Notes under the pieces: generated by a model
Seen by the model: only the letters and a program-made list of their open reading frames with translations
Told to the model about the DNA's origin: nothing
The model's database searches: none
Part shown: positions 5,985 through 30,386 of the stretch, piece after piece
Numbering within the stretch: the first letter of the stretch is position 1
Layout of the letters: every line of letters starts with the position of its first letter
Assembly (NCBI GenBank): GCA_029262815.1
Contig: JAJCYS010000042.1
Span: forward strand, 13,156 to 77,155
Source: Deltaproteobacteria bacterium
GTDB lineage: Bacteria > Bdellovibrionota > JAJCYS01
Direction: 5' to 3'
Length of the DNA: 64,000 nt
Made by a program: the position numbers and the translations under genes

Positions 5985-6041
5985 TTGCTCTCCCTTTTTG
6001 TTAGAATCGGTCTACCCAACTCGCTTTATCCAACACCAAAC

Positions 6042-7346
6042 TTACATAACCTTAGCGATCAATGGTAAGTTCGGCGCATCGGATGTACGAATATCCATAC
6101 AAGCCAAAAACTTCCCTGTAAGTACTTCTTGTACTTCAGAACCCTCGGAAACAAAACACGTCATTAGGGGGTCTCCAACCTCGACCGAATCGCCGATTTT
6201 CTTGTGCAACTCAACACCAACTGAATTATCTATATCAGCATCAGTGCGCGAGCGGCCTCCACCTAACCCTACTAACAAATAACCAAGAGCCTCTGTATCC
6301 ATGCCACATACTGTGCCACTTGTTTCAGCACAAACATCCCACTTATGGGACGCTTGAGTATAAAACCCATCTTTCTCAAAGGAAGAGATGTCTCCTCCTT
6401 GCGCTTCTATAATGTCGCAAAATTTTTGATAGGCAGCACCTGAGCGGAGAGCCTCTTTGACCCTAGACTCAGCTTTCGCGTAGTCAGATTCGATACTACC
6501 TGCTTGAACCATCAGTGCAGCTAACACAACACTTAGATGGTAAAGATCCGTTGGCTCTTCTTGTCCCTTTAGGATTTGTAGCACCTCATGAATTTCCGGA
6601 GCTAACCCAAAATATCGACCCAATGGCTGGTTCATATCAGAAAGAACGCCTAGAACTTTGACCCCGTGCGCATCTCCGATATCTTTCATTTTTTCATAAA
6701 GTGAAAGTGCATCCTCTTGGGACTTCATAAATGCACCGACCCCAAATTTCATATCCATAACTAGGCCGCTAATATCTTCAGATAACTTTTTGCTCATAAT
6801 AGATGAAGCTATTAGGTCCTGATTCTCAACCGTCCCGGTTACATCTCTCAGCCCATATAGCTTTCGATCTAACGGCGCGATTCGAGCGGTTGGGCCCGTA
6901 AAACACAGTCCATGATCATGAACCAACTGCTCAATTTTTTCGTTTGTATCTGGAATCGATACACCCGGAATAGCCAAAAGTTTATCCAGCGTCCCGCCCG
7001 TGTGGCCTAGGGAACGTCCCGAAAGCATAGGAATTGCACCGCCCAAAGCGGCTACAATAGGCGCGATAATAAAGGATGTTTTGTCTCCAACCCCACCCGT
7101 ACTGTGTTTATCAACACAATGTGAACTTTCAATTTGAAGCTTTACGCCACTTTCGAGCATGACTTGGGTCCATATCGCAAGTTCGGACCGTGTGAGACCC
7201 TTAAAAAATACCGCCATAAGCAAAGCGCTCATTTGTGCAGGTTGAATACCCCCATTGTCAAATTCTGTGAGAAACCAATGAATATCATCATGAGAGAGGA
7301 CTTCACCATCTCGCTTCTTCTTGATTATGACTTGAGGTAACTTCAT
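6042..7346 (-). CDS. deoA: thymidine phosphorylase / pyrimidine-nucleoside phosphorylase
   Basis: 434 aa. Glycosyltransferase family-3 signature DKHSTGGVGDKTS and the S/T-G-R-S/G-L-G-H-T-GGT segment. Confidence 0.8.
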   Translation of the reverse strand: MKLPQVIIKKKRDGEVLSHDDIHWFLTEFDNGGIQPAQMSALLMAVFFKGLTRSELAIWTQVMLESGVKLQIESSHCVDKHSTGGVGDKTSFIIAPIVAALGGAIPMLSGRSLGHTGGTLDKLLAIPGVSIPDTNEKIEQLVHDHGLCFTGPTARIAPLDRKLYGLRDVTGTVENQDLIASSIMSKKLSEDISGLVMDMKFGVGAFMKSQEDALSLYEKMKDIGDAHGVKVLGVLSDMNQPLGRYFGLAPEIHEVLQILKGQEEPTDLYHLSVVLAALMVQAGSIESDYAKAESRVKEALRSGAAYQKFCDIIEAQGGDISSFEKDGFYTQASHKWDVCAETSGTVCGMDTEALGYLLVGLGGGRSRTDADIDNSVGVELHKKIGDSVEVGDPLMTCFVSEGSEVQEVLTGKFLACMDIRTSDAPNLPLIAKVM

Positions 7347-7490: not shown

Positions 7491-8999
7491 TTGGAGCTAA
7501 TGAGTCAGAAACCATATCGTATTTTTATTAGCAAAACGTTTTTTGAAAAACGTATCGCTTTTTGTACCGAACAGAATGTTGAAGAAGTCTGGATAGATCG
7601 AGGACACCCAGAAAAACATATTGTGGGTAATATCTACTATGGAAAAGTCCAACGGGTTCTTCCAGGCATGCAGGCCTCTTTTGTAGATATTGAACTTGAA
7701 AAAAATGGGTTCCTTTATGAAGGAGATATTATTGAAACCGAAGAAGATGGGCTCGACTACTTAGACTCAAGTCCTGAATCAGGTGCAGCCCCGCATGTCC
7801 CATCATTTCAGTCATTGAAACCTAAAGACCGCATCTTGGTTCAGGTCACAAAAGGGCCGATCGCTTCCAAAGGCGCCCGATTAACCACGAGTATTACCCT
7901 GACTGGCAAATTCCTCGTTTTGCTCCCCCAGAGCAGACGAATTGGGATCTCAAAAAAAATAAAGAATAGCAAAACACGCGATCAACTCTTCCAAGCCATC
8001 AAAGAAGTCCAGAAAAACCAAGGCTTTCCGTATGGCATTATCATTCGAACTGCTGCTTTGAACACGCACCCGAAAAAACTGCAAGAGGAATACCTCAACC
8101 TTATTGAAACCTGGCTTAAGGTTGCCAAAGCAGCACAAAAAGCTAAGGCGCCGTGTTTGCTACATAGTGATAACGATCCACTTGATCGACTTTTGCGAGA
8201 ATACTGTGGTAACCCTGCTACTCAAATTATTGTTGACCATGAGACAACCTATAAAAGGTTGTTGAGCAAAGCTCAAGCACGTTACTTTTTTCCAAAAGAA
8301 AACATAATTCTATATAACAAAGGCGGGGGGCTATTTGAGGATTTTGGCATTGAACAAGAACTCTCCAAAACACTCGATAGACGTATTTGGCTAGAAAGTG
8401 GGGGATACATTGTTTTTGACGAAACTGAAGCACTCACCGTAATCGACGTCAATACCGGACGATTTGTCGGAAAGACAAGATTAGAAGAAACGCTCGTTAA
8501 AACAAATATCGAAGCTGCTGAGGAAATCGTTCAGCAAATCACTTTACGAAATTTATCTGGAATCATTATTGTTGATTTTATAGATATGGATGAAAACAAA
8601 CACAAACACCTTATCCTCGATACACTCAAGAAAAAACTGAAGAACGATCGCACACGAAATTCCGTTTTATCTATGACACAACTTGGACTTGTTCAAATTA
8701 CCCGAAAAAGAACTCATTCATCCTTACTACATCAACTTTCAACAACCTGTCCGTATTGCGATGGCAAGGGGGTTACGAAAGGCGAAGAGACTGTTCTATT
8801 GGAGATTCTTCGTGAGATTAAATCTCATATTCAAAAGAAAAATAATCGACTTTCTGTTTTGGTGAGTGAACCTTTGTTTGAGGCTGTGTTGACAACCTAT
8901 AAACTTTTTATTGAAGATATCGAGAAAAAACATCGATTGAAAATTACTTGGAAAATGATGAGCGATTTTCATTTGGAGGAGTTCGAGGTATACGTCTGA
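7491..8999 (+). CDS. rng: ribonuclease G (RNase E/G family, short form)
   Basis: 502 aa. S1 domain (VGNIYYGKVQRVLPGMQASFVDI), catalytic DFIDM motif and a Zn-link-like CPYCDGKG. The length fits RNase G rather than RNase E. Confidence 0.75.
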   Translation: MELMSQKPYRIFISKTFFEKRIAFCTEQNVEEVWIDRGHPEKHIVGNIYYGKVQRVLPGMQASFVDIELEKNGFLYEGDIIETEEDGLDYLDSSPESGAAPHVPSFQSLKPKDRILVQVTKGPIASKGARLTTSITLTGKFLVLLPQSRRIGISKKIKNSKTRDQLFQAIKEVQKNQGFPYGIIIRTAALNTHPKKLQEEYLNLIETWLKVAKAAQKAKAPCLLHSDNDPLDRLLREYCGNPATQIIVDHETTYKRLLSKAQARYFFPKENIILYNKGGGLFEDFGIEQELSKTLDRRIWLESGGYIVFDETEALTVIDVNTGRFVGKTRLEETLVKTNIEAAEEIVQQITLRNLSGIIIVDFIDMDENKHKHLILDTLKKKLKNDRTRNSVLSMTQLGLVQITRKRTHSSLLHQLSTTCPYCDGKGVTKGEETVLLEILREIKSHIQKKNNRLSVLVSEPLFEAVLTTYKLFIEDIEKKHRLKITWKMMSDFHLEEFEVYV

Positions 9000-10522
9000 C
9001 GTTCATACTTTACAGAGGCCTGCCCTTTTCTTTGCACAGGATGTCTAAACTCACATCGAAATGCCATTTCTGGCATCCGTTTTAATACCCAAAGTTTAGC
9101 CGCTGAAGATCTAAATAGTTTCAAAATCCTCGAAAAGTACATATGCCGAACAGCGTCTCTTATTTTCAGTACACTTGCCTCATCCGACTGATCATCCAAA
9201 CTGGGGGTTGTCTTTGCAAAGTGAGTAAAAAAATCGAAGTCACCCTTCGAAACAATCACATCAATATAAAAGCTATTCTGATTTAGAAAGGGGATGATTG
9301 TAATACTTCGTCCATTGTCTACACACACAAATTCGGCTAAAAAATGCAGGAGCTCCTGAAAGGACTGAAGCACTGTTTTGACGTTACACCGTATCTCATA
9401 TGTGGCAACTTGCCTAAGCAGCGCTGAGTGTTCAGATAGCATAAAAGAAGTTGGTTTTTTTAGCTGAACAGATAACGTTAATAGTATGTTCTGTAACAGT
9501 TTTGAAAGGGGCTCAACTCGAGTCCCTCTTGAATAGGGGTTCCAAGAAAAAAACTGGGGCAATCCTGACACAAGCCCCTTGAGACGATCGAATGCGTTCA
9601 GACAGCAACTTAAATCTTCGCTAAGCGTCTCAGAAAGCTTTTTTTGTGAAATCCACTCCAGATTCAATCCTATGCTTGAAAGTGGGGATTTAATTTCGTG
9701 AAAAATAGATTGAACGACAATTTGGCTATCTAAATAAAAAGGTAGATCAGAAGATGTACCCAGCCTGACATGCCCCTTTAAAACAAGTAAATATGACACC
9801 CCTTGTATACCATAAGGCAACTTCTTCAAAAACACATGGAATGTACGGCTACCTGATTTAAACACAAATAACTTGGGCTTATACTGGTGTAAAATTTCGG
9901 CCACTGTGACTTTGGCTGGCGGCTCATCAGCACCTTTTGTAAACTCGCCCACTTGTTCCAAATCATATAAAGATCTAGAAAGCAGGACGCCTTTCAAAAG
10001 GTGTGTTGCAGCACCATTTTTTAATAATATTTTACCTACACGGTCAACTACAAAGCAGGGATGCTCATATGTATCCAAAACACCCAGCCACGGCTGGACC
10101 CCTTTTATGGGCAGCTTCAAAGCGTGGGTCCGTTTTATGTGAAACCGAAGATAGTCGTTACGTTTAAATCGTTGCTCCAAAAATCGACCTAAAGCTCGAA
10201 CCCCTCTAGTGGTACCATCCGGCGGAAATTGCAACAGGGTTATCCCAAGGGCGCCTAATTTTTTCATGTTCGGTTTGCCCTGCGATGACGTATACATAAT
10301 CCTGCACCGTGCACCCCTCAACAGAGCGGCTACTGAGGGAAGCGTGTGGAGTGGCGGGAGATCATATAATGATAGAAAAACGACTTCTGGATGTTGTTTT
10401 CGAACTTCATTTATCCGTTTCCAAGGTATGACCTTAATGGTATAACAGTGGAGAAGCTTTTGGACATTAACTGGACTGTGACCAAGCCAAAAAGCTTGAA
10501 AGGGTTGGGTTATGGAGACCAC
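8969..10522 (-). CDS. atypical sensor histidine-kinase-like protein (PAS-like region + HisKA H-box; degenerate ATPase domain)
   Basis: 517 aa. H-box FHEIKSPLSSIGLNLEWI. A possible PAS-like segment (HPCFVVDRVGKILLKNGAATHLL). The C-terminal region has a DNGRSI G1-like element but no clear G2 glycine loop. The N-terminus overlaps the divergent upp-like start, so the real start is probably an internal codon. Confidence 0.45.
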   Translation of the reverse strand: MVSITQPFQAFWLGHSPVNVQKLLHCYTIKVIPWKRINEVRKQHPEVVFLSLYDLPPLHTLPSVAALLRGARCRIMYTSSQGKPNMKKLGALGITLLQFPPDGTTRGVRALGRFLEQRFKRNDYLRFHIKRTHALKLPIKGVQPWLGVLDTYEHPCFVVDRVGKILLKNGAATHLLKGVLLSRSLYDLEQVGEFTKGADEPPAKVTVAEILHQYKPKLFVFKSGSRTFHVFLKKLPYGIQGVSYLLVLKGHVRLGTSSDLPFYLDSQIVVQSIFHEIKSPLSSIGLNLEWISQKKLSETLSEDLSCCLNAFDRLKGLVSGLPQFFSWNPYSRGTRVEPLSKLLQNILLTLSVQLKKPTSFMLSEHSALLRQVATYEIRCNVKTVLQSFQELLHFLAEFVCVDNGRSITIIPFLNQNSFYIDVIVSKGDFDFFTHFAKTTPSLDDQSDEASVLKIRDAVRHMYFSRILKLFRSSAAKLWVLKRMPEMAFRCEFRHPVQRKGQASVKYERQTYTSNSSK

Positions 10523-11339
10523 TATAGATATAGTTTATCAAACCAGCCATCATAAAGTCAGTGAACTCCCACATGAATATGGGGATCGAGTTCACATTCT
10601 TGGGAACCCAACCCTAATTCATCTTCTGAATACCTTCTCCAGTACACAGTTGACGCATCCCTTCATTATTACTTCATACGTAAAACGTATTTATCAAATT
10701 ATTCTCTATGAATCACTCCCTGTTATTTGCTCATTAACGTCGAGCACATATCAATCTAGAATGGTGGAATATACGCCTAAAGGACAATTTGAGAGCATTG
10801 GGTTTGACCCTGCCTCTCAATTTGTGTGCACATCGCTAGCTCGCGCTGGCATCATTCCCTCACAAACCTGTTATGAAGATCTACTCACTATTGTGGGCCC
10901 TAGCAGCACACGGCAAGATTATTTTTCCTGTGAACGGGCTATCAACGGTAATGGCGAAGTAGAGGGGACAACTTTATCAAGCGCCAAAGTAGGTGGGGAT
11001 ATCCAAGATCGTGTCATTATTATTCCCGATCCAATGGGTGCCACAGGTAGCACCATTGAAACCGTGCTTTCTTTCTATGACACCCAAGTTGAAGGAACAC
11101 CCCGCCATATAGCAGCACTATTCATGATTATCGCACCTGAGTGTATTCACAGACTGACTCAAAAATTTCCAAATTTAACCATTGTCGCCGGCCGTCTTGA
11201 CAGAGGACTTAGTGAACCAGCAATCCTTAATAGCACCTTAGGCGCTTACCCTGAAGGAGAAAAAGGCCTCACTGAGAAATCTTATATCGTACCTGGCGCA
11301 GGTGGGGTTGGCGAGATCATCAACAACACCACCTGTTAA
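10512..11339 (+). CDS. upp: uracil phosphoribosyltransferase family protein with N-terminal extension and insertions
   Basis: 275 aa. PRPP-binding loop VIIIPDPMGATGSTIE, LARAGI and C-terminal YIVPGAGGVGEI all match UPRTase motifs. It is longer than the canonical enzyme, which is about 208 aa. Confidence 0.6.
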   Translation: METTIDIVYQTSHHKVSELPHEYGDRVHILGNPTLIHLLNTFSSTQLTHPFIITSYVKRIYQIILYESLPVICSLTSSTYQSRMVEYTPKGQFESIGFDPASQFVCTSLARAGIIPSQTCYEDLLTIVGPSSTRQDYFSCERAINGNGEVEGTTLSSAKVGGDIQDRVIIIPDPMGATGSTIETVLSFYDTQVEGTPRHIAALFMIIAPECIHRLTQKFPNLTIVAGRLDRGLSEPAILNSTLGAYPEGEKGLTEKSYIVPGAGGVGEIINNTTC

Positions 11340-11672
11340 AACACATACTTATTGTCTCTTAACCTGCACCTGGCTTCATGATTCCCCACGAATTATTCCA
11401 CTATGTATTTTTTATAGAAAAATATTTTAATAAAAAAGCATAATCTTCTAAAAAAACGAGAAAAATGGGAAAAAAACGAGATCGTGATTCTTCCACAGTC
11501 AGGGGATAAATCAACAAATGAGCCTTCTAGTACGTAACTTTTGTCCCCAAAAACCAACAACCCACCCATGAATAAGGGTTCTCATCGAAAAGCACAAAAA
11601 AAATGAATAATATTAATATCTTCAAAGGCTTTTACACATCAAAGGCAAATCATCAGCTCAAAGGAATGAGGA

Positions 11673-13208
11673 TTGAAGAAAACGCTGCGTTTTTCTTCAA
11701 TAGAACTCATGCTTAACGAAGCGATAAATGTTGACCTTGCTCGTATGGTGACTGAAGCAGTCCAGCTGAAGCTATCCCCGCTTGCTTATAAGAATTGGAT
11801 TTCCCCCCTCACGTTTGAAGTTGATTCTGACGGTGTTTTTTGTGTCAAAGTGCCCAATGCCTTTCACATGGAGAACGTCAAACGTCGTTATCTTCACGTG
11901 ATTGAAACTGCTCTTAGAGAAGGGGATCCTCTTGCACCTGAACGGCCTATAAAGGTGTTTGTGTGCTCTGATGTTACCAAATTGGCCCAGGAACCAAAAG
12001 AAAGCAAAAAACCTGCTCCTGAAGCTCCTCAGCCGTCTTGTTCGAATTCAACTAACATTCCACATTTACCCGATTTGAAACTCCACAAGGCAGCGCCGGC
12101 CCATTGCGCATCAAACGACATGCTCATTCGTGTAATGGAGGATTTTTCCAAAAACAGAGATAATTACGATTTCGTATATGTTTACGGTGGCCTCGGAGCA
12201 GGAAAAACCGCCTGCTTAAAACACTTTTATCAACACCTCAAACAAACCCAAAAAGTACGAGCCACATATATTACGATTGATGAGTTTACCTCAAACCTTG
12301 TATATGCCATCCAACAACACAAAGTATCCGATTTTAGAAATAAATTTAAAGACAATCATGAGGTCATTTTTATTGATGATTTTCATATGATTGCCAATCG
12401 ATCGAAAACCCAAGAGGAGCTCGCGCACTTGCTCCAAAGCTGGAAAAATAAACAAATTAAATGCATCCTTGTTTCACAACTTCCCCTAAACGATGTGGTT
12501 TGCAATGAGCACCTTAAATCACGTCTTGAATCGGGTTTATGCGTGCCTGTGAGAGCTCCAGATTTCCAATACTTAGAGCATGTCGCTCAACAAGAGATGC
12601 CGACATTAGACGCTGAACTACGCCATGTCCTTTTGTCTCATTCACGCGGAGCAATACAATCTCTTCACACGTTTAAAGGTATTTTGAATCGCATGCGCGT
12701 CGAAATTAGTTTGTGTGGCAAAACATTGACCGAAAAAGATATTGTTGCGATCATCCACGAAATTGTACCTAGCCAATTTTCAAAGGAAGAAAAAACAACG
12801 ACCCCTGCTGAAATCATTCATTTGATTTGTCAGTATTACCATATCGAACCAGAAGCTATTTCAAGCAAGAGCAGAAAAAAAGCATTAAACGAAGCGCGTA
12901 AACTGTGTATTTATTTACTCCGAAAACGCACCTCCTTAAGTTTAGCTGACATTGGTGACTTAGTCGGCAGAGATCATACAACTGTCCTTCATGCGCTTCA
13001 AAAAACACAAGACATGCTTGCACATAACTGTGTGATGACTCGACATTTAAGATTTTTCGATGAAAAACTTGTATCTGGAAACGGTCCTTCCTTCCCTCAA
13101 GCTAATAAAGAAAGTATTATTGGTTTGAATGTGGAGCAGTCATCTTCGAGCATCGCACTTCCATCCACAGCACCTAAACCATCAAGAAATGAAATCGTGC
13201 TCCACTAA
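11673..13208 (+). CDS. DnaA paralogue (second full-length DnaA-like AAA+ initiator-family protein)
   Basis: 511 aa, TTG start. It carries the standard DnaA elements: Walker A (YGGLGAGKTACL), Walker B (VIFIDDFHMI) and box VII (LKSRLESGL). Domain IV is canonical (LADIGDLVGRDHTTVLHALQKTQDML). It adds a long P/E/K-rich linker and a C-terminal tail. Confidence 0.75.
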   Translation: MKKTLRFSSIELMLNEAINVDLARMVTEAVQLKLSPLAYKNWISPLTFEVDSDGVFCVKVPNAFHMENVKRRYLHVIETALREGDPLAPERPIKVFVCSDVTKLAQEPKESKKPAPEAPQPSCSNSTNIPHLPDLKLHKAAPAHCASNDMLIRVMEDFSKNRDNYDFVYVYGGLGAGKTACLKHFYQHLKQTQKVRATYITIDEFTSNLVYAIQQHKVSDFRNKFKDNHEVIFIDDFHMIANRSKTQEELAHLLQSWKNKQIKCILVSQLPLNDVVCNEHLKSRLESGLCVPVRAPDFQYLEHVAQQEMPTLDAELRHVLLSHSRGAIQSLHTFKGILNRMRVEISLCGKTLTEKDIVAIIHEIVPSQFSKEEKTTTPAEIIHLICQYYHIEPEAISSKSRKKALNEARKLCIYLLRKRTSLSLADIGDLVGRDHTTVLHALQKTQDMLAHNCVMTRHLRFFDEKLVSGNGPSFPQANKESIIGLNVEQSSSSIALPSTAPKPSRNEIVLH

Positions 13209-13341
13209 ATAACTTGTCATCCCTGCTGCAGCCTCCACTAGGGTATACTCCGACAGAAATATACGACGTCAACTCGTGCGTAAAACACCTTAAGTTCGTA
13301 TAAATTAAACCCGAAGAGCCGCTATATAAGAGAGGTTATGA

Positions 13342-14709
13342 ATGGCAAAATATTTTTTGATCGGTTCGATTTGTTTTTTTTCATTCAATACATTCGCTGG
13401 TCAAAATAAAAAGATTCAGTCAGAAACTAAATTCAAAATTGTTGCAGGATATAGCCACGCTTGTCTACTTCGTGAAGGCAGTGTTACATGCTGGGGTAAC
13501 AATGCAAGTGGACAATTGGGAGTAGGTAATCAGATCGGAATCTCGTTCACCCCAGTCATTATTCCTGAACTCACCAGCAACGTTATTGATATTGCTTCTG
13601 GCATCGCACACACATGTGCATTAAAGAAGAGTGGGACTGTTTTATGCTGGGGTTTGAATCGAACTGGGGAGGTTGGCATTGGCACTAAAGGAAAAATAGT
13701 TAATGGTGAATATATATCCAATAGTGTATACACCCCAGCCTTTGTACAATTACCTGAACCCGTCAAAGTAATTTATGCTGGAGGGTATCAATCATGTGCT
13801 GTTGCTCAAAATAACTCTGTGTATTGTTGGGGTGGATTGAGAATTAAAAGTGGTAGAAATGACCCACTAAGTGAGGACGATAGCCGAACAACGCCCACTT
13901 TTCTACTAAAAGCAGCTGATAAAAATACTATCTCAATCGCATTAGGCTTGGGTCATATGTGTATCAATGATTCTGGACGTGTTTCTTGTATGGGGCATAA
14001 CCTTTATGGTGCAATGGGGGATAATGAGAAGTATCATCCGCACACAGAAAAAACACTTGCAAAACGAATGATGGAATTAACTAAAAAGAAAAATCCTACA
14101 GCCCTGCAAAAGGGCGCTATTGAAAGATTCGAAGCAAGAATAATAAAGAGAGTGCGTGAAAGTTTATCGTTTCAGCCTAATCATGTTGAGGGCAAAAATC
14201 GAGTCACAAAATTTGCCTCATCCCTTTTTGGGATGTGTTCAGTTTCAGGTATTAACAACGGATTATCCTGTTGGGGGGTGCGCTTATTTCCAGGCAAAGC
14301 CAAATACCCAGACGTTAGAGGTTTTAGCAACCGTAGTTATGATGTCAGCCCCACCGCTATCAGATTCAAAGATGGTCGGCGATTTGATCAAATTATTGAT
14401 CTAGATATGTTTTTTCACGGATGTGCAATTCGTAAAGATGGCTCGGTCTGGTGTTTTGGGCAAAATAATTCAGGTGAACTGGGGTTTTCGGCTTCTGATG
14501 ATAGATTAAGAAAGTTTTCACCGACCAAAGTCGAAGGACTGCCAGGTCCGTCTATCGATATTGCAACTGGAGGCGGATTTTCATGTGCCATCATCGATCG
14601 AGAACATGTCCCCGTTTATTGTTGGGGAGCCAATCATTCAGGGACTCTAGGCCATGGGAAATCTATTTCCCAGTCATCTAAACCTTTGGAAGTAAAAGGC
14701 CCCTGGTAA
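13342..14709 (+). CDS. secreted RCC1-repeat (beta-propeller) protein
   Basis: 455 aa. Signal peptide followed by repeated ...H.C.L...G.V.CWG.N..GQLG... units (at least 6 copies) characteristic of RCC1/ATS1 repeats. Confidence 0.7.
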   Translation: MAKYFLIGSICFFSFNTFAGQNKKIQSETKFKIVAGYSHACLLREGSVTCWGNNASGQLGVGNQIGISFTPVIIPELTSNVIDIASGIAHTCALKKSGTVLCWGLNRTGEVGIGTKGKIVNGEYISNSVYTPAFVQLPEPVKVIYAGGYQSCAVAQNNSVYCWGGLRIKSGRNDPLSEDDSRTTPTFLLKAADKNTISIALGLGHMCINDSGRVSCMGHNLYGAMGDNEKYHPHTEKTLAKRMMELTKKKNPTALQKGAIERFEARIIKRVRESLSFQPNHVEGKNRVTKFASSLFGMCSVSGINNGLSCWGVRLFPGKAKYPDVRGFSNRSYDVSPTAIRFKDGRRFDQIIDLDMFFHGCAIRKDGSVWCFGQNNSGELGFSASDDRLRKFSPTKVEGLPGPSIDIATGGGFSCAIIDREHVPVYCWGANHSGTLGHGKSISQSSKPLEVKGPW

Positions 14710-14728
14710 AACTACAAGATACTCAAAT

Positions 14729-16936
14729 TTATCTGATATGAAGCATCTCGTATATTTTGGGTAAATCCCAGTGAGCATATCCGACAAAATTTTCCACATC
14801 AGTAATCAAAGACTCAACTTTGTATTGAAGTGCTAATCCGGTGTTCTGAAGCCATTTCATTTGATCATCAATTGATTTTTTTTCCAATTGGTCTATGTGG
14901 CGCTCTAGTACCCTTACTTGTTTAACAAGAGTCTCGATGGCGGCAGATAGTTTTTTGCCTTCTTGCTTCAACGCAACACCTTGTTGTTTCCCTGAAATAG
15001 ATTGCATAGCGACAAGCGTTTGATAGTGATTTTTGAGCTGTGCTTCGGCTGAAGGGAGCACATGTTGCAACACCAAATCAACAAGCGTTCTACACTCTAT
15101 GGTATAGAGCATGACATATCGTTCACAACGCACATTGTACCGTGATAGCAACTCTTCTGGATGAAGCACGCTATGACTCTCGAACAACGCAATAGATGAT
15201 TTTTTCTTTAGTTCCGAAAAAGCCTCTAAAGAAGTTCGGTAATTGGGCAATTTTCGACGTTTTGCTTCTTTTGACCAAGAATCAGCGTAATTATTACCGT
15301 CAAAAATAACATTTTCGGTCTCTTTCAAACTAGACTGCAACACACTCATAACGGCTGTTTCTTTGTTTTTAAATTTTTTGTAAGCACTTTTTAATTCTCT
15401 TGAGAATTGGCTAATCCCCTCAGCTACAACCGTATTAATCACCGTCACAGGAAATGAAATAGAAGAGGCTGATCCAACCGCACGATACTCAAACTTATTG
15501 CCTGTAAACGCAAAGGGAGAGGTTCTATTTCGATCTGTATCGTCTTTCTCAATATGGGGCACACTTTTTAAACCCAGTGCCATAATTTCTTTAGCGCGAG
15601 TTTTCACATTTTGTTTTCGATCTTTTATTTGACGCACGATTTCCGAAATAGCATCCCCCAGAAATACTGAAATAATGGCCGGAGGCGCTTCATTACCCCC
15701 CAACCGTTTATCGTTCCCAAGACTTCCAATCGAAGCACGAATCAAACCCCCGTACTGATGAATCCCCTTTAACACGCTTGATAAGAAGCACAAAAATCTA
15801 AGCAGATCTTTAGGGTTTTTGCCTGGGGACAATAAGTTTAAGCCTTCATCGGTTCGAATTGACCAATTGACATGTTTGCCACTTCCATTTATCCCATCAA
15901 ACGGCTTCTCATGTAAGAGCAACTTAAAATCATGGCGTTCAGCCACATGAGACATTAACACCATGACCATTTGGTTGTGGTCCGCTGCTATATTGGCGTC
16001 TTGGTGTTGGACGGCTACCTCAAACTGGGAGGGTGCGACCTCGTTGTGGCGTGTCTTTGCAACCACACCAATCTTATACAACTCGTATTCGAATTCCTGC
16101 ATAAAAGCTTGAACTCTAGTTGGAATGTTCCCAAAGTAATGGTCATCCAAATATTGGCCACGAGTTGAAGGGGCCCCCCCTAACATTCGCCCAGTGAGTA
16201 CTAAATCAGGCCTTCTGTAAAAAAAAGTTTTATCGACGAGAAAATACTCTTGTTCTGGTCCTGCAACAGGTACAGCCGCCTGAGTCCGAATTGGGTCAGG
16301 TAATAATTGAAGAAGCTCTTTAGTCGCTAGATCAATAGCCTTCATCGATCGTAATAAAGGGGTTTTCTTATCTAACGCTTCACCTGTATAGCTAATAAAT
16401 ACAGACGGTATACATAGGGTTTTCCCATTTTCCGTATCTTTGATAAACATGGGACTTGTGGGATCCCACGCTGTATATCCTCTCGCTTCGAACGTAGATC
16501 TTCTACCCCCACTTGGAAAACTCGAGGCATCAGGTTCTCCTCTGATTAATTCGCTTCTTGTGAAATTTTCAAACGCAACGCCCTCATCGTCAGCCAAAAA
16601 AATAGCATCATGCTTTTCAGCTGTTGAGCCCGTTTGAGGTTGAAACCAGTGACAATAATGAGTCACCCCTTTTTCAACAGCCCAACGTTTGACCGCTTCA
16701 GCTATCTCACCAGCAATTTCTGCTGACACGTTGGCACCTGATTTTAGACTCTTTGAAAAAGTATTATAGGTAGGTGTAGGTAGTGCTTTTTTTAATTCTT
16801 GAATGCCAAATCGATTACACCCAAATATTTTTTGAATCGAGATCGTATTTCCATGCCCGTTGTTCGTCGTTCCATGAAAACATCTCACCTTACGAGTCAG
16901 AACCTCTCCCAACATCTGGTTCTTTTGAAGACCCAT
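14729..16936 (-). CDS. glnN: glutamine synthetase type III
   Basis: 735 aa. Length and N-terminal HYCHWFQPQTG region fit GS-III (GlnN). Catalytic-domain similarity runs throughout. Confidence 0.7.
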   Translation of the reverse strand: MGLQKNQMLGEVLTRKVRCFHGTTNNGHGNTISIQKIFGCNRFGIQELKKALPTPTYNTFSKSLKSGANVSAEIAGEIAEAVKRWAVEKGVTHYCHWFQPQTGSTAEKHDAIFLADDEGVAFENFTRSELIRGEPDASSFPSGGRRSTFEARGYTAWDPTSPMFIKDTENGKTLCIPSVFISYTGEALDKKTPLLRSMKAIDLATKELLQLLPDPIRTQAAVPVAGPEQEYFLVDKTFFYRRPDLVLTGRMLGGAPSTRGQYLDDHYFGNIPTRVQAFMQEFEYELYKIGVVAKTRHNEVAPSQFEVAVQHQDANIAADHNQMVMVLMSHVAERHDFKLLLHEKPFDGINGSGKHVNWSIRTDEGLNLLSPGKNPKDLLRFLCFLSSVLKGIHQYGGLIRASIGSLGNDKRLGGNEAPPAIISVFLGDAISEIVRQIKDRKQNVKTRAKEIMALGLKSVPHIEKDDTDRNRTSPFAFTGNKFEYRAVGSASSISFPVTVINTVVAEGISQFSRELKSAYKKFKNKETAVMSVLQSSLKETENVIFDGNNYADSWSKEAKRRKLPNYRTSLEAFSELKKKSSIALFESHSVLHPEELLSRYNVRCERYVMLYTIECRTLVDLVLQHVLPSAEAQLKNHYQTLVAMQSISGKQQGVALKQEGKKLSAAIETLVKQVRVLERHIDQLEKKSIDDQMKWLQNTGLALQYKVESLITDVENFVGYAHWDLPKIYEMLHIR

Positions 16937-18892: not shown

Positions 18893-19222
18893 TTACAGTT
18901 TAAAGACAATAAAGAAAGCAATCAAAAGGGCATAAATCACGAGTGATTCAATAAAAACCAACCCCAAAATAAATTGCTTAAACATTTTGTCTTCGGCGCC
19001 TGGATTTCTTGAGATTCCTTCCATCGCAGCAGCAACAGCTTTCCCTTGGGCTAAGGCTCCACCGACAGCAGCAATACAAATTGCTAAAGCCGCACCTAGG
19101 GCCAACAGTCCGTACCCAACTGAAACACTACTCCCAGCAACAGCCTTTTCTGCAGCAAAAACGGGAAGTGCAACTCCCACAACCCCTAAAACTGTACCGA
19201 ATACTTTCATTTGCTTCATCAT
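18893..19222 (-). CDS. atpE: F0F1 ATP synthase subunit c
   Basis: 109 aa. Two TM hairpins with a GYGLLALGAALAICIAAVGGALAQGKA loop-region signature and a conserved acidic residue in helix 2 (FIESLVIYAL). Confidence 0.8.
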   Translation of the reverse strand: MMKQMKVFGTVLGVVGVALPVFAAEKAVAGSSVSVGYGLLALGAALAICIAAVGGALAQGKAVAAAMEGISRNPGAEDKMFKQFILGLVFIESLVIYALLIAFFIVFKL

Positions 19223-19270
19223 GGCATCACTCCATTTCTATGCTTGTTAATATTGATTCAAAAAACTTGA

Positions 19271-19978
19271 TTAATGATCATGTGACTCTGCTAAAGATAT
19301 ATAAACTAACGTAAGTAATGTAAACACAAAAGCTTGAATAAACGCAATAAAAATTCCTAGCGCCATAAAAGGAATCGGAACCAAATACGGAACTAAACTT
19401 GAAAACACACTATACACCAAGTGGTCCCCATACACATTACCCCGCAACCTCAAACCTAGAGACACAGGACGAATAACATGGCTAAACAATTCAATAATAA
19501 ACATAAGTGGGATAAGCGGATAGAGCGCCTTCGAAGAGGTAGGTCCCATAAATTGCTTAATGTATGCAAAGCCGTGGGTTTTTATGCCGATCAGATTATA
19601 AAAAACAAAAACAAAAATCCCTAACGCTAACGTTGTATTCAAATTGTCAGTAGGTGGTAAAAAACCTGGTATTGCTCCCAGTAAGTTGCAACATAGGATA
19701 AATAAAAACAAAGATCCCGCTAATGAGACGTAGTTGTCGCCATTAGGGCCGATCGTATCCCTGCAGAATTTCCGAATGAATGAAACATACACTTCAGAAA
19801 TGTTTAGCAAAGAAAAACGCTTAGACGGTATAACACTTTGGTGTGCTTTTAGAGAGACCCAAACGATTGAGATGACAATCGAAAGAACCAATAGAACAAA
19901 GACAGCCAACCCCACATGAGGGTAAGTCCTAAAAAAAGGAATGTTTGAAAAATAGAGCCATGAAATATGTTCGCCCAT
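19271..19978 (-). CDS. atpB: F0F1 ATP synthase subunit a
   Basis: 235 aa polytopic. The C-terminal region carries the conserved Arg context (LGLRLRGNVYGDHL). Confidence 0.8.
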   Translation of the reverse strand: MGEHISWLYFSNIPFFRTYPHVGLAVFVLLVLSIVISIVWVSLKAHQSVIPSKRFSLLNISEVYVSFIRKFCRDTIGPNGDNYVSLAGSLFLFILCCNLLGAIPGFLPPTDNLNTTLALGIFVFVFYNLIGIKTHGFAYIKQFMGPTSSKALYPLIPLMFIIELFSHVIRPVSLGLRLRGNVYGDHLVYSVFSSLVPYLVPIPFMALGIFIAFIQAFVFTLLTLVYISLAESHDH

Positions 19979-19979
19979 C

Positions 19980-20255
19980 TTATTTACGCCCTAACCTTAG
20001 CCAATAACTTACACCAAAATAAACGAAACCCAATGTCACCCCCAATGTTATCCACAATAAGGAGAAAAAGGAACTGTTTTTCTGGACTAAAAGAAAAAGT
20101 GTGGCCAGAAGCAAAATCTTTAGCCCGCCAAAAAAGGGCAGTGCACTTAATTGCTTTAGACAGATTAGTTTGTGGAGTTGCCTCGAAATTGCCCACAAAT
20201 AGGCAAACACAAAGAGTGAGGTGCCGATACTGACCCATACCATGCTCGAATTCAT
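19980..20255 (-). CDS. atpI: ATP synthase protein I-like small membrane protein
   Basis: 91 aa hydrophobic protein directly upstream of atpB. Call is by position and topology only. Confidence 0.4.
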   Translation of the reverse strand: MNSSMVWVSIGTSLFVFAYLWAISRQLHKLICLKQLSALPFFGGLKILLLATLFLLVQKNSSFFSLLWITLGVTLGFVYFGVSYWLRLGRK

Positions 20256-20280
20256 TGATTCACCAAGAGGTTTAGGCGTT

Positions 20281-27444: not shown

Positions 27445-28584
27445 TTACACCCTTAAAGGCATAATCAAGGCTCTATAATGCGAACCATCCTCAGGCAACA
27501 GGATCATATGTGTTTCTTTATCTCTTATTAAAATTTTAACCTGATCACCTGTAAGTACAGATAGAGGCTCAATTAAATACCGTGAGTTTAGAGTTGCTAC
27601 GACAGATTTTCCTTCATCAAATGCATTTATTTCATCTGGTGTAAGAGCCTCCCTAGCATCTCCTAAGGTCTCACTTGTACAATACAGTTCCACTTTTTCA
27701 TGTGAAAAAGTAAGTTGAATGGCTCTTAGTTTCTCTGAACTCAAAAGAGATGTTCTTTTTAACGCAGACATGAGTTGCTCACGATTAATGATGAACTCAG
27801 AAAAATCATCTTGCACGTCAACAATATGTTTAAAAGCCGGAAAATCACCGTCCATTAACCGTACATATAAGTTGAAATTTTCATGCTGAAAGCACAACAC
27901 CTTATTGGACTCAAAAATACTTATATTTTTGTCTTCACCAATGAGTTCACACAGCTTTTTGACCTCGAAAGCCCCTTTCTTAGGAAGTATATATTGGCCC
28001 TTCGACAATAGGTCCTCAGACTCGTGACCATATTGAGTCATATCGAATACACTCAATCGGTGTCTGTCTGTCGAAGCTATCTTCCACTCATTTGAGTCGG
28101 ACAAATCGAATAAGACACTATTCAGAATGATCTGTGTTTCGTCTGAAGAAACAGAGATCAATGTATGTTCCAATGCCGATTTTAGGTGTGTTGAATTAAC
28201 ACAAATCCCTTTCTCAGCATGTTTAACATCAAAAATAGGAAAGTCTTCGTGCGGTAGGGTATTGAGTCTAAATGAAGCACTTCCAGAGGAAAGTTCTAAA
28301 GACTGATTTTCATTTAGCGAGAGTTGTATTTCATCAGATGACAGATCTTTTACAATGCTAGTGAAGCTTTTTACGGGTATGCAGAAGGTACCTTCACCTT
28401 CTACTTGGCAAGAGATCGTAGCCGTCGCATAAACTTCGAGATCAGTGGTTGTTATCGTGAGTGTATCTCCAGATGCTGAAATCAATCCATGAGAAAGGAT
28501 TGGCATTGTTGATCTTTTCTCTGCAATACTCTGACAAAAAGATAAAACGTTAGAGAGTGCTACTTTTTCTACTTGTACTTTCAT
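27445..28584 (-). CDS. dnaN: DNA polymerase III beta sliding clamp
   Basis: 379 aa. Sits immediately downstream of dnaA and has a three-domain, clamp-like length and composition. Confidence 0.8.
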   Translation of the reverse strand: MKVQVEKVALSNVLSFCQSIAEKRSTMPILSHGLISASGDTLTITTTDLEVYATATISCQVEGEGTFCIPVKSFTSIVKDLSSDEIQLSLNENQSLELSSGSASFRLNTLPHEDFPIFDVKHAEKGICVNSTHLKSALEHTLISVSSDETQIILNSVLFDLSDSNEWKIASTDRHRLSVFDMTQYGHESEDLLSKGQYILPKKGAFEVKKLCELIGEDKNISIFESNKVLCFQHENFNLYVRLMDGDFPAFKHIVDVQDDFSEFIINREQLMSALKRTSLLSSEKLRAIQLTFSHEKVELYCTSETLGDAREALTPDEINAFDEGKSVVATLNSRYLIEPLSVLTGDQVKILIRDKETHMILLPEDGSHYRALIMPLRV

Positions 28585-28907
28585 GGCGAGTTATTTTAGC
28601 AGTCTCCTGAGATATTACAATCGCTAGCATGAATGTTTAGATAATGAATTTATTTATCCCGCTATGGTTATTAAAGATTAAACCAAAGAACCTGTTGAAA
28701 TATAGAGTAACTATTTGTTTTTTAAAGTGAAGCTATGATTAACACTTTCTGTCACTTTTCAACATTTTGGTTATCTACTAATTTAAGCACTAAGTTTTAC
28801 AAGATAGTAATCATAAATCTACACTAGAAAAACACACTTTTTACACAGGTCAAAAAAAGCGTTTAAAATTGCTTCAAAACCTATTGAAAGACCTGTTGAA
28901 AAGAACG
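28585..28907. other. candidate oriC (AT-rich dnaA-dnaN intergenic region at the strand-orientation switch)
   Basis: 323-bp AT-rich non-coding spacer. Degenerate DnaA-box-like 9-mers (TTATCCCGC, TTATCTACT). An 11-mer direct repeat ACCTGTTGAAA occurs twice. Gene orientation flips around dnaA/rpmH. Confidence 0.3.
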
Positions 28908-30386
28908 TTAAGGTACTAAGTTTTTTAACTTTTGCTCAATACCTTCAACTTGAAGTCGGAATTTTTTGTCTTCAGACAAGAGTCTAGAAACTTTTCTCAC
29001 GCCATGAATAACGGTCGTATGGTCCTTTCCACCAAAAGCAAACCCAATTTCTGGATAAGATTTATCCGTAAACTTTCGAACGAGGTACATGGAGATATGT
29101 CTGGGCAATGAAATATCTCGGGCTTTAATGCTAGATTTCAATTCGAGTACGCGACATCGGTATTCTTTTGCAACCATATTGAGAATTTGTTCTATTTCAT
29201 AAGACACTTTTTCCGTTTTTAGAAAAGGTTTGACCAATTGTTTTGTAGACTCGAGGGTAAAAGGAGTTTGAAAAAGTCGTGAGGCGAATTTCAACTTTTG
29301 GAGTGCGCCCTCAATTTCCCTGACATTATTTGTACAGTGAGAGGCTAGGAAGTTAATGACTTCATTAGATAAAGTAAGGTTTAGAAGCTTTACTTTTGTT
29401 TTTAGAATAGCAATTCGCGTTTCGAGATCAGGGGGTTGAATATCTGCGATTAACCCCCACTCAAACCGGGTGCGAATGCGATTTTCCAGACCTGTTAAAT
29501 CCTTAGGCACCTTGTCGCTTGTAACAACTATTTGTTTTCCCTGTTCGTATAACATATTGAAAGTAAAGAAAAATTCTTCTTGAATAGATTCTTTTCCAGA
29601 CAAGAATTGCACATCATCAAGCAAGAAAATATCGATATCGTCTCTGTATTTTTTTCTAAACTCGAACAAACGTTCATTTGAGGTAAAGCTGGTAAAATCC
29701 GTAATAAACTGTTCACACGGGACATAACAGGTTTTTCGCTCAGGGTATTTTTGGGAAACTTCGTGCTTAATAGCACGTATTAGGTGCGTTTTGCCTAATC
29801 CAGATGCGCCGAAGAAAAAAAGTGGGTTAAAACTTTTTCCAGGTTCGTCGACAATGGCCTTCGCTGCAGCATGGGCAAATTGGTTGGACGGACCTAATAT
29901 AAATGTCTCAAATGTATAGGTTTTATGAGATCGAGGTTCAGTTTGTGATGGATTAGGGTCATTCAGACTTAAAGTCGCTTGTAGTGTTTTCAAAGTAATA
30001 AAAAACGGAATAGGATCGACAAGGGTATGAATGATTTTTTTGATCGTATTAATATGGTTTTTATTAATAGTTTCAAGTATATAGTCATCATCTGCCAATA
30101 TGGTTATATGGAGTTTTTCAGTGTTTTCTTGAGAGAGAAAAGCTGCTTTTAGGCTTAGTTTTTGAATCCAGGCAGTATAGCAATGCAGAGAAAAGCTTTT
30201 TTTTGCAACTGCTTGAAACGTTTGATTTATTTTAGTAGTCTCAATCATAAAGTAGTATGCCTCATAAAGGTCAGTGTTATTGACATAAGCTGTTAAATGT
30301 GATTTTAATGGACTCCTACTTTTTTTCAACGTTAGAATTAATTTTTGAAGTGAGGGTGCGGTGAAACGGACATACCAACCAAGCAA
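28908..30386 (-). CDS. dnaA: chromosomal replication initiator DnaA
   Basis: AAA+ Walker A ([11 protein letters not shown]), Walker B ([10 protein letters not shown]), box VII ([10 protein letters not shown]), sensor 2 ([10 protein letters not shown]) and domain IV ([15 protein letters not shown]). The annotated start overlaps rpmH (30361..30519), so a start at the internal Met (30248) is likely. Confidence 0.9.

Follow-up and report, generated by a model that had tools for sequence, protein, structure and literature searches.

The 64-kb window analysed here, i.e. the whole stretch of DNA available to us from one genome, encodes, beside a bona fide DnaA, a full-length DnaA paralogue with all four domains that is restricted to its lineage, is inherited vertically and adjoins neither dnaN nor oriC. 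From the residues that this protein has kept and lost we propose, at what we judge an even chance, that it serves as an assembly-competent, hydrolysis-impaired auxiliary DnaA acting at oriC and/or at DnaA-box promoters, and as such it would represent a natural experiment in initiator control in a small uncultured lineage.

A second full-length DnaA is encoded in the window

The paralogue CDS lies at 11709..13208 on the + strand and encodes 499 aa (NCBI-annotated form P0001); its ATG lines up with the Met in every orthologue, and translation from a TTG at 11673 instead would yield the 511-aa ORF (11673..13208, + strand) described in a sequence-only reading of this DNA. The motifs quoted there (GGLGAGKTAC, IFIDDFHMI, LKSRLESGL and GRDHTTVLHALQK) are all found in the translation, and the central claim of that reading, an intact second full-length DnaA, has stood up. 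All three Pfam DnaA domains score above their gathering scores, i.e. Bac_DnaA (PF00308) at 81.1 bits, Bac_DnaA_C (PF08299) at 78.8 bits and DnaA_N (PF11638, cut-off 24.6 bits) at 33.6 bits, and the DnaA of B. subtilis (8btg) aligns to the paralogue over its full length by phmmer (E = 2e-40). On the NCBIfam DnaA equivalog TIGR00362 the paralogue scored 225.9 bits and its orthologue P0366 scored 214.1 bits, below the cut-off of 343.9. The AF2 model (pLDDT 84.8) has four modules, and its top Foldseek matches are DnaA structures, followed by Hda, with ORC and Cdc6 as distant fold matches. The profile searches that had been suggested as a check thus place the AAA+ part in the DnaA clade, and the ORF is not a pseudogene.

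We compared the window with further loci (L001, L004, L005, L007, L008, L009 and L012). The paralogue clade comprises six full-length, syntenic members with intact ORFs in six genomes; its identity to any other DnaA is approximately 20%, and the closest named relatives of the lineage are Bdellovibrionota or ‘Deltaproteobacteria’ MAGs at less than 50% identity. The phylogeny was built by NJ only and places the clade on a long stem branch, because of which the origin of the paralogue cannot be rooted. The paralogue has an identity of 0.51 within its clade, compared with 0.56 for the canonical copy, and at equal divergence pN/pS is 0.26–0.33 for the paralogue versus 0.28 for canonical dnaA, with synonymous sites saturated; the two copies are thus under equally strong purifying selection. 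The locus is anchored upstream by a UPRTase-like gene (10512..11339, + strand; Pfam UPRTase 53 bits), kept in L001, L004 and L009, and downstream by a convergent GS-III (glutamine synthetase type III) gene (14729..16936, − strand), kept in L001, L009 and L012. In three genomes both dnaA copies lie on the same contig, with the paralogue 14–16 kb from dnaA or the dnaA–dnaN spacer, and wherever a contig is long enough the two are co-inherited near oriC.

The gene immediately downstream (13342..14709, + strand) was also pointed out in the sequence-only reading. Its position, its RCC1 repeats (177 bits on the Pfam RCC1-like domain, with further matches to RCC1 and RCC1_2 repeats) and a probable signal peptide are borne out, the N-terminus, MAKYFLIGSICFFSFNTFA followed by G, resembling a Sec signal peptide when read by eye. 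It is not a partner of the paralogue, being missing from the slot in L001 and L009 and replaced by other small ORFs in L012; it is an unrelated non-syntenic insertion outside the conserved unit.

Domain layout and residue conservation

Domain I (aa 1–85; 11709..11963, + strand) is the part matched by DnaA_N, is modelled at pLDDT >90 and matches generic DnaA N-termini with an HHalign probability of 98.3%. It is followed by a P/E/K-rich, variable domain II linker (aa 89–122; 11973..12074, + strand) that is unalignable within the clade, and by the domain III AAA+ module (aa 137–352; 12117..12764, + strand), which superimposes on DnaA domain III with a TM score of 0.84 and an rmsd of 2.8 Å. Domain IV, the DnaA-box-binding HTH (aa 366–456; 12804..13076, + strand), is the part matched by Bac_DnaA_C and retains R399, R407 and GRDHTTVLH intact. 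The protein closes with a family-specific C-terminal extension ending in IVLH (13095..13205, + strand). Both the linker and this tail, as had been proposed, are predicted to be disordered, with pLDDT <50 at residues 89–122 and 463–499. The tail ends in [TV][LMV]H in all six clade members, and a scan of 181 ORFs of at least 120 aa from these loci found this ending in the paralogues only.

We then aligned the six clade members directly to E. coli DnaA, the numbering of which is used throughout. All six keep K178, D235, D236, R285, L290, V211, R399, R407, D433, H434, T435 and H439, and with them the Walker A pattern GxxGxGK[TS] and the Asp-Asp of Walker B. Positions 243 and 245 have stayed basic, and the Phe equivalent to F46 is invariant (6/6). 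The deviations noted earlier in sensor 2 and Walker A are real and clade-wide: the sensor-2 Arg334 is His in 6/6 members and H180 is changed to Thr or Ala in all. In addition, the sensor-1 Asp269 is lost throughout (Gln or gap), the box VII Arg281 is replaced (H/L/I/L/L/L) and Glu204 is Asp in every member. For comparison, position 334 is Arg in 368 of 371 other DnaAs, with K, S and C listed for the remaining three, these 371 having been picked for their resemblance to the two queries, so that they do not form an unbiased sample.

The canonical dnaA and the predicted oriC

The canonical dnaA (28908..30386, − strand; annotated form P0127, 473 aa, start at 30329) scores 449.8 bits on TIGR00362, above the cut-off, and has all catalytic residues intact. 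It belongs to a cluster with dnaN (27445..28584) and then gyrB, and begins 15.7 kb past the paralogue stop, in agreement with the separation of approximately 16 kb given before. The spacer between dnaA and dnaN (28585..28907, no strand) has a GC content of 0.30, carries repeated TTTCAACAGGT and TTTTACACAGGT boxes and coincides with the GC-skew minimum, and is the predicted single oriC. Dense box clusters also occupy the equivalent spacers of L005, L007 and L008, with seven perfect relaxed boxes in L007.

The leader of the paralogue carries conserved elements

The leader (11340..11708, + strand) measures 333 bp to the TTG at 11673 and 369 bp to the ATG at 11709, and in the longer version has a GC content of 0.34, compared with approximately 0.41 for the window; orthologous leaders span 235–380 bp. 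Rfam gave no match in it at E≤1, and it holds no acylphosphatase remnant, although L001, L004 and L009 have an acylphosphatase gene on the upstream side of their leaders. The AT-rich composition, the direct repeat and the elements TTCCACAG and GGGGATAAA reported from the letters alone are all present. The repeat, AAAAAAACGAGA, stands at 11450-11461 and 11470-11481 on the + strand, 20 bp start-to-start. These are the only two occurrences of AAAAAACGAGR in the 64-kb window, and orthologous leaders have the motif as well, that of L001 at 9805 and that of L004 at 2857, the latter with a degenerate copy 20 bp downstream. A conserved block of the form CGAGATCG-N8-TTCCACAG-N4-GGGGATAAA (11477..11511, + strand), with TTCCACAG at 11491-11498 and GGGGATAAA at 11502-11510, recurs in orthologous leaders, and its shared core CGAGRT...TCCACAG...GGGGAWAA runs across the leaders of four genomes. 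The leader carries functional-looking elements, among them TTCCACAG and the A-rich CGAG repeat, both conserved in orthologous leaders; it is only because of this conservation that the leader motifs exceed chance.

The TCCACAG core resembles a DnaA box (positions 4–9 of TTATCCACA plus G) and is common to 4/4 available leaders, 159–217 nt 5′ of the start codon; none of 5000 Markov simulations gave a comparably GC-rich 7-mer common to all four. The composite TCCACAG-N3-6-GGGRA is confined, among all DNA compared, to paralogue leaders (window, L004 and L009). As a DnaA box, however, the conserved block has one mismatch even to the relaxed consensus, no match to TTATCCACA with ≤1 mismatch was found in the leader and DnaA boxes are not statistically enriched there; the block could instead serve as a site for an unrelated regulator. 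One perfect relaxed box (TTWTNCACA), TTTTACACA, lies at 11630..11638 on the + strand. The dnaA–dnaN spacer of the window contains this 9-mer too (28839), as does L004 (3046), where it lies 69 nt 5′ of the start codon, so that the suggested search for boxes common to the leader and 28585..28907 did return one, although a single relaxed box is weak evidence alone because the background density is 0.25 per kb.

Proposed role and alternative readings

The functional steps set out here go beyond residue content and are drawn from E. coli and Caulobacter mutants. The paralogue keeps the residues that would bind ATP-Mg, namely Lys-Thr/Ser in the P-loop and Asp-Asp in Walker B, and likewise the residues that would support ATP-dependent head-to-tail assembly and contact with single-stranded DNA (Arg285, AID-2 Leu290, H-motif Val211 and the basic residues at 243 and 245). 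In E. coli and Caulobacter, the residues that it has lost are responsible for hydrolysing ATP and for inactivation of the RIDA/DDAH type; they also account for the very tight binding of nucleotide and stabilize the oligomer for helicase loading (PMC5742627, PMC3193534). Given these roles, the paralogue is probably assembly-competent but hydrolysis-impaired, i.e. it may act as a DnaA without the nucleotide off-switch, although with His at sensor 2 slow hydrolysis might still occur. Its domain IV is the DNA-reading head of DnaA, so DnaA boxes should be recognized, and once bound to them, at the single oriC (15 kb distant), at promoters with DnaA boxes or at both, the paralogue would either assemble together with the canonical DnaA or compete with it, the outcome being modulated initiation or DnaA-dependent transcription. 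Its activity would then be set by synthesis, for which the TCCACAG site in the leader suggests DnaA- or auto-regulation, and possibly also by turnover or by partner binding through the disordered tail with its conserved end.

Two other readings we regard as rather improbable. In one, the ancestral functions have been split and both DnaAs are needed together at one oriC, the canonical protein supplying the ATP switch and the paralogue supplying binding of the single-stranded unwinding element and the helicase-recruiting patch of domain I. The residues are indeed reciprocal: the paralogue keeps F46, V211 and a basic 245 and lacks D269, R281 and R334, whereas the lineage's canonical DnaA keeps the last three and, in five sequences, has T/T/N/T/L for V211 and Tyr or His for F46, a polar residue at 211 being present in only 7 of the 371 other DnaAs. 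The canonical copy furthermore has no Pfam DnaA_N match at E≤1, and the co-inheritance of both genes close to oriC, wherever contigs are long enough, fits a joint function. Against this, Val and Thr are isosteric, ordinary DnaAs show wide variation at R245 and F46, the canonical domain I is still homologous (HHalign 94.8%), W6 is absent from both copies and each clade offers only five or six sequences. A weaker form would make the paralogue a hydrolysis-proof ‘always-ATP’ initiator, controlled only by expression and turnover; in the full form the canonical DnaA would have a weakened single-strand-binding H-motif and a weakened helicase patch in domain I, and, if true, bacteria would here have a counterpart of the way in which AAA+ initiator paralogues divide their labour in ORC. 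The other reading, which we rate no higher, takes the paralogue out of replication altogether, as a pure DnaA-derived transcription factor regulating DnaA-box-like promoters, including its own. The intact domain IV and the box-like site conserved in its leader are consistent with this, as is the bifunctional nature of DnaA as initiator and transcription factor and the treatment of chlamydial DnaA paralogues as transcription factors (PMC4989314); the conserved nucleoside-salvage neighbours would also fit DnaA control of nucleotide-supply genes. However, an Arg finger, AID-2, H-motif Val and Phe46 that stay invariant over approximately 50% divergence would be unexpected in a pure DNA-binding regulator.

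Of the three roles raised in the sequence-only reading, a regulator or co-factor of initiation and a DnaA-derived transcription factor are more plausible than a second initiator. That the paralogue independently fires an additional origin, placed within the AT-rich leader of its gene, is very doubtful. An AT-rich region with repeats and box-like sites beside a DnaA-like gene has a superficial likeness to a dnaA–oriC arrangement, but a GC content of 0.34 is ordinary for local intergenic DNA, no canonical box with ≤1 mismatch is present and the one or two relaxed boxes contrast with the clusters in dnaA–dnaN spacers. Cumulative GC skew, moreover, declines through 11–12 kb without inflection, including at 11.5 kb, and has a single minimum at approximately 28 kb; lacking both a DnaA-box cluster and a skew shift, the leader is most probably not a second origin. 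Scarcely credible, in our estimate, is the view that the gene is left over from a replication module of a plasmid or phage, or is a functionless duplicate in decay, to which the strong divergence from any DnaA and the long stem branch might point. Searches of phage and plasmid records and of viral contigs turned up nothing closer, the best matches being ordinary dnaA genes at 24–26% identity, PADLOC returned no hits of note, and stable chromosomal synteny, ORFs intact in six genomes and a pN/pS of approximately 0.3 (at saturated synonymous sites) are at odds with decay.

Comparison with known systems

With canonical bacterial DnaA the paralogue shares the four-domain architecture, the fold, Walker A and B, the Arg finger, AID-2, the H-motif and the GRDHTTV.H signature. 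It differs in its score (226 versus 344 bits on TIGR00362) and identity (~20%), in that the sensor-1 Asp, sensor-2 Arg, Arg281, H180 and E204 are all changed, in the extra disordered tail with a conserved end and in its position away from dnaN and oriC. Hda corresponds to the AAA+ domain, lacks domains I and IV and carries an N-terminal clamp-binding motif. Hda and HdaA, regulatory inactivators that act on DnaA and do not themselves initiate, resemble the paralogue as DnaA-derived AAA+ proteins, and Hda structures are its second-best fold matches, but they are short (~230 aa; the TIGR03420 model has 226 positions). We rejected this identity: the paralogue scored 50.6 bits on TIGR03420 (Hda) against a cut-off of 194.8, it has domains I and IV, and no conserved clamp-binding motif exists in the clade, the QLKLS of the window copy not being conserved.

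A second full-length DnaA beside another in one genome is known from the chlamydial DnaA1/DnaA2, with DnaA3 in Waddlia (PMC4989314; bioRxiv 10.1101/2020.10.19.346502). The chlamydial-type P0075 (Rhabdochlamydiaceae) is similar to the paralogue in having sensor-2 Arg changed to Lys and sensor-1 Asp to Asn, but it also has R399 changed to Q and H439 to S, both of which the paralogue keeps. Membership of the chlamydial-type family was likewise rejected, as the paralogues scored only 139.2 and 126.5 bits on NF009087 (PRK12422; cut-off 657), compared with 521.5 for P0075 and 472.1 for P0083, and the two form separate groups in the NJ tree; the origin of the paralogue appears to be independent of the chlamydial paralogues. 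Eukaryotic ORC/Cdc6 and archaeal Orc1/Cdc6 offer an analogy only: they are related AAA+ initiators, in part with degenerate ATPase sites, and act together or at different sites.

The hydrolysis-deficient mutants R334A and E204Q of E. coli and R357A of C. crescentus bind ATP, build initiation complexes and escape hydrolysis-based inactivation (PMC5742627, PMC3193534), and R357A is a hyperactive initiator that is unable to replace the wild type (PMC3193534). The same positions are altered naturally in the paralogue (R334 to His and E204 to Asp). However, whereas each mutant has one substitution, made in the cell's sole DnaA, and over-initiates, the changes in the paralogue are fixed in an extra copy, together with the loss of D269 and R281, beside a wild-type-like DnaA.

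A second full-length DnaA near the origin

The ORF proposed by the sequence-only reading was confirmed at 11673..13208 (+), where a TTG start gives a protein of 511 amino acids; the ATG at 11709 gives the 499-residue form deposited at NCBI (P0001), and this methionine aligns in all orthologues. Every motif quoted in that reading was found in the translation, and profile searches showed that the protein is DnaA-like over its whole length and not in domain IV alone, with Pfam scores of 81.1 (Bac_DnaA), 78.8 (Bac_DnaA_C) and 33.6 bits (DnaA_N), each above its gathering score, and a phmmer alignment of residues 9-454 with B. subtilis DnaA (8btg; E = 2e-40). The AlphaFold (AF2) model, which was driven by a DnaA alignment (77 input sequences) and had a mean pLDDT of 84.8, comprises domain I (residues 1-85), a disordered linker (89-122), the AAA+ domain (137-352), domain IV (366-456) and a disordered tail (463-499). 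Its top structural matches were DnaA structures (TM 0.84 and rmsd 2.8 Å for domain III), with Hda next. The paralogue lies below the curated DnaA equivalog threshold (225.9 bits against a TIGR00362 cut-off of 343.9) and shares 21% identity with the canonical DnaA of the window across 297 residues; annotation pipelines label both copies 'chromosomal replication initiator protein'. The true dnaA gene, at 28908..30386 (-), scores 449.8 bits, with rnpA-yidC-jag-mnmE before it and dnaN and gyrB after it, and the lowest point of the cumulative GC skew in the window falls near 28 kb.

Among 5.8 billion proteins, a word-indexed search returned only three close relatives (37-45% identity), followed by matches at the generic DnaA level of ~25%; of 1.84 billion cluster representatives searched exhaustively by HMM, only two belonged to the clade (818 and 660 bits), ahead of a next match at 196 bits. 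No member was found among the species-representative genomes scanned, and a metagenome scan gave the protein P0002 again and nothing further. Use of the conserved neighbour, the type III glutamine synthetase (GS-III) gene, as a handle recovered two extra full-length members (at loci L009 and L012) that the word search had missed, whereas a partial ORF beside GS-III at locus L010 did not align as a paralogue. All six full-length members occupy one genomic slot, in the order HisKA-like gene (-), UPRTase-like gene (+), acylphosphatase (+; absent from the window), a leader of 235-380 bp, paralogue (+) and convergent GS-III. Where contigs are long (three genomes), the paralogue shares a contig with the canonical dnaA-dnaN-gyrB-fabH-gyrA block, at distances of 15.7, 14.9 and 14.2 kb and with intervening genes identical in kind. 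For the canonical DnaA and for GS-III, the closest named relatives come from Bdellovibrionota, Bacteriovoracia and 'Deltaproteobacteria' MAGs, at less than 50% identity.

In a tree built by neighbour joining only (50 DnaAs, 438 columns), the paralogue clade was monophyletic in 100 of 100 bootstraps on a long stem (0.79), and in none of the 100 did a paralogue group with the canonical DnaA of its own genome. Because its identity is an equal 20-21% to canonical and to unrelated DnaAs, the paralogue may have arisen either by ancient duplication or by transfer. With five or six sequences per clade, mean within-clade identity was 0.51 for the paralogue and 0.56 for the canonical protein, indicating about equal rates of divergence, and pN/pS at matched divergence was 0.26-0.33 and 0.28 respectively, with synonymous sites saturated. 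On these values the paralogue is a functional gene under purifying selection, intact and not a pseudogene. Searches of phage, plasmid and viral collections found no closer relatives, only ordinary DnaAs at ≤26% identity, and PADLOC gave nothing beyond weak generic P-loop matches; an origin in a defence system or mobile element was rejected on these results. That the paralogue is a mobile or decaying gene is, in our judgement, extremely improbable.

Neighbouring genes

The sequence-only reading had drawn attention to a secreted RCC1 protein encoded immediately downstream. Its RCC1 repeats were confirmed and secretion is plausible, but a link to the paralogue was rejected on synteny. The stretch where the paralogue and GS-III converge (13209-14728 in the window, 4296-5510 in L012) is a variable insertion slot, which holds the RCC1 gene (13342-14709, +) in the window, two small unrelated unannotated ORFs in L012, a different partial ORF in L010 and nothing in L001 and L009; since the content of the slot varies among relatives, the RCC1 gene is an incidental insertion. 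A second eukaryote-like β-propeller repeat protein within the 64 kb, of 787 amino acids (47292-49655, +), has WD40-type matches that are all sub-threshold.

Upstream, L001 (9427-9705), L004 (2456-2734) and L009 (14187-14468) have the acylphosphatase gene interposed between the leader and the UPRTase-like gene. It is cleanly missing from the window at the 11339/11340 junction, with no tblastn remnant in the whole 64 kb, so that a decayed acylphosphatase gene in the leader was rejected. The HisKA-like gene (8969-10522, -) encodes a 517-residue protein in which HisKA is matched only below threshold (25 bits) and HATPase_c is not detected; the gene keeps its place in L004, and also in L001 and L009, where it has no Pfam match. 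Its start overlaps that of the UPRTase-like gene by 11 bp on the opposite strand. Just 5' of this neighbourhood lies a conserved nucleoside-salvage cluster (L001 1051-5847; L009 18363-22211; window 2518-7346, where the ORFs were assigned by synteny), comprising an amidohydrolase, a PNP/UDP phosphorylase, a NupC-type transporter and a thymidine phosphorylase in L001, and in L009 the last three of these plus a faint DeoC-like gene, the stretch examined there having no amidohydrolase call. Conceivably, nucleotide supply is linked to the DnaA-like paralogue.

The genes for the F1Fo ATP synthase are split across the origin (18893-19978, -, and 40969-46050, +), with atpB and atpE on one side and the genes from atpF onwards on the other, ~21 kb away beyond dnaA and parAB, a layout also present in a JGI relative (L005).

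Residue anatomy of the two DnaA proteins

We aligned the six paralogues and five canonical DnaAs of the lineage with E. coli K-12 DnaA, whose numbering is used here, and in a second run added 371 other DnaAs picked by similarity to the queries. All six paralogues keep K178 with T/S179, D235/D236, the Arg285 finger, AID-2 L290, the H-motif V211 with basic residues at 243 and 245, the domain I residue F46 and the entire DNA-contact set (R399, R407, D433, H434, T435 and H439). Equally uniform are the losses: the sensor-2 R334 is His in 6/6, at a position that is Arg in 368 of the 371 other DnaAs (the remaining three being listed as K, S and C), the sensor-1 D269 is replaced by Gln or a gap, and the box VII R281 is H, L or I. 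Further changes found in all six are E204 to D, H180 to T/A, R227 to K and P423 to A/M/V.

In E. coli, R334 is required for intrinsic ATPase activity, RIDA and DDAH and is dispensable for building the initiation complex; R285 senses ATP in trans, R281 stabilizes the oligomer for DnaB loading, the very tight binding of nucleotide depends in part on sensor 1, F46 is part of the DnaB/DiaA patch, and V211 with R245 binds the single-stranded unwinding element (PMC5742627). The Caulobacter counterpart of R334A is a hyperactive initiator that is unable to replace the wild type (PMC3193534). Extrapolating from these two organisms, as do all our functional statements on the paralogue, we infer from the residue pattern that it is competent for assembly and DNA binding, but impaired in hydrolysis.

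All six paralogues end in a disordered extension of 20-45 residues that terminates in [TV][LMV]H, an ending confined to them among the 181 ORFs of at least 120 amino acids scanned in these loci. Speculatively, it might be a short linear motif, such as a degron or partner-binding tag; its resemblance to QL[SD]LF was too weak for a β-clamp-binding motif. With the sensor-2 His, a GxxGxGK[ST]TY P-loop and a DDFH Walker B region, this ending makes up the signature of the paralogue.

The canonical DnaAs of the lineage keep D269, R281 and R334, and all of their catalytic residues are intact. Their V211 is changed to T/T/N/T/L, a position that is polar in 7 of the 371 other DnaAs, F46 is Y or H, and W6 is absent (the window copy and P0128-P0131). 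This pattern is reciprocal to that of the paralogue. Pfam DnaA_N gave no match to them even at E≤1, but the proposal that the canonical copy has lost domain I was refuted by HHalign, which finds this domain at 94.8%.

The leader of the paralogue gene

The direct repeat reported in the leader (11340-11708) is real, with AAAAAAACGAGA at 11450-11461 and 11470-11481. The DnaA-box-like elements reported with it held up in part: the leader contains a conserved box-like site and one perfect relaxed box, but is not box-enriched by itself. It has no E. coli-type box with ≤1 mismatch, and such boxes are barely above chance in the whole window (27 observed against 18.7 expected). Comparison of orthologous leaders revealed a footprint of an A-rich CGAG(A/G) element, which the window and L004 each carry twice at a spacing of 20 bp, then T(T)CCACAG at a gap of 15-16 nt (25 nt in L001), then GGGGAWAA. 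TCCACAG, of which TCCACA corresponds to DnaA-box positions 4-9, is common to all four available leaders, 159-217 nt 5' of the start codon; a comparably GC-rich 7-mer was common to four leaders in none of 5000 Markov simulations, and the composite block is absent elsewhere in roughly 200 kb of lineage DNA. The perfect relaxed box, TTTTACACA at 11630, has a counterpart in L004. The simplest reading of these motifs is that the leader would be a regulated promoter region under the control of DnaA and/or the paralogue, comparable to the autoregulation of dnaA in other bacteria; a different regulator could also act there.

Other candidate elements were rejected. No Rfam match was found at the gathering threshold in the window, nor at E≤1 in 11300-11760, and a scan for sigma-70 promoters and terminators showed no enrichment (8 found against 8.1 expected). 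A perfect 11-bp inverted repeat, ATTGAAGAAAA / TTTTCTTCAAT with an 8-nt loop (11672-11701), spans the alternative TTG start just before the ATG at 11709, but its folding z-score is not significant (-1.35 in the window, -1.35 to +0.36 across four genomes), and it has no equivalent in the orthologues.

Possible roles of the paralogue

DnaA is nearly always single-copy, and the binding and hydrolysis of ATP set the timing of its activity. Judging from the residue analysis, there is about an even chance that the paralogue is an auxiliary DnaA without the hydrolysis off-switch. Such a protein would bind DnaA boxes, assemble in an ATP-dependent manner and either support or oppose the canonical DnaA, be it at the one oriC nearby, at promoters with DnaA boxes, or at both. 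Expression, through the conserved leader, would set its activity, perhaps together with turnover through its C-terminal tag. A pure transcription factor would fit domain IV and the leader, but would leave the invariant Arg finger, AID-2, H-motif and F46 unexplained, and we consider this role unlikely. The changes at V211 and F46 in a canonical protein that keeps D269, R281 and R334, together with its missing DnaA_N match, would fit a heteromeric initiator with functions partitioned between the two proteins; this too seems unlikely, with the cautions that Thr and Val are isosteric, that ordinary DnaAs differ at F46 and R245 and that the canonical domain I is still recognizable.

The proposal of a second origin fired from the leader fared worse and is very improbable: the GC skew has no inflection at 11-12 kb, and the leader has one or two boxes, whereas the dnaA-dnaN spacers of 4/4 genomes carry clusters (in L007, seven perfect relaxed boxes within 170 bp). 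Boxes in these spacers are often extended by G (TTTTACACAGGT, TTTCAACAGGT and TTATCCACAG). Four relaxed boxes also occur in about 410 bp of the window (20048-20458), in and around small atpI-like ORFs 5' of atpB: a perfect TTATCCACA at 20048, TTATGCACA at 20381, TTTTCAACA at 20422 (-) and TTTTCCACA at 20450. The corresponding stretch of L005 yielded no relaxed box, and the group may serve in titration or regulation, or have arisen by chance.

Comparison with known DnaA paralogues

With its own signature, fixed position near oriC and conserved leader, the paralogue clade is a separate family, of which we found no description in the searchable literature. Substitutions that geneticists use to break the off-switch (at the sensor-2 Arg, Glu204 and the sensor-1 Asp) are here fixed in an extra near-origin copy and maintained under purifying selection, with the box-reading and filament-assembly residues all kept. 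The clade is thus a direct handle on which DnaA functions need hydrolysis, on whether DnaA filaments can be mixed and on initiation control by synthesis or turnover instead of a nucleotide switch; the heteromeric reading, if true, would make it considerably more interesting.

Hda is a truncated relative of DnaA. Extra DnaA copies also occur in Chlamydiae (DnaA1/2, with DnaA3 in Waddlia), where little is understood of them (PMC4989314; bioRxiv 10.1101/2020.10.19.346502). The family NF009087 scores 521 bits against P0075 of Rhabdochlamydiaceae and 472 bits against its tree partner P0083, but 139 and 127 bits against paralogues of the window clade, which excludes a DnaA of chlamydial type. Like the paralogue, the chlamydial-type P0075 has no sensor-2 Arg, and similar sensor decay is seen in the unrelated metagenomic DnaA-like proteins P0435 and P0505; in P0435, P0505 and P0075 the sensor-2 Arg is S, C and K respectively, and the sensor-1 Asp is absent. 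This shared decay suggests that sensor-degenerate DnaA paralogues recur, having evolved independently in Chlamydiae, in this lineage and in scattered metagenomic proteins.
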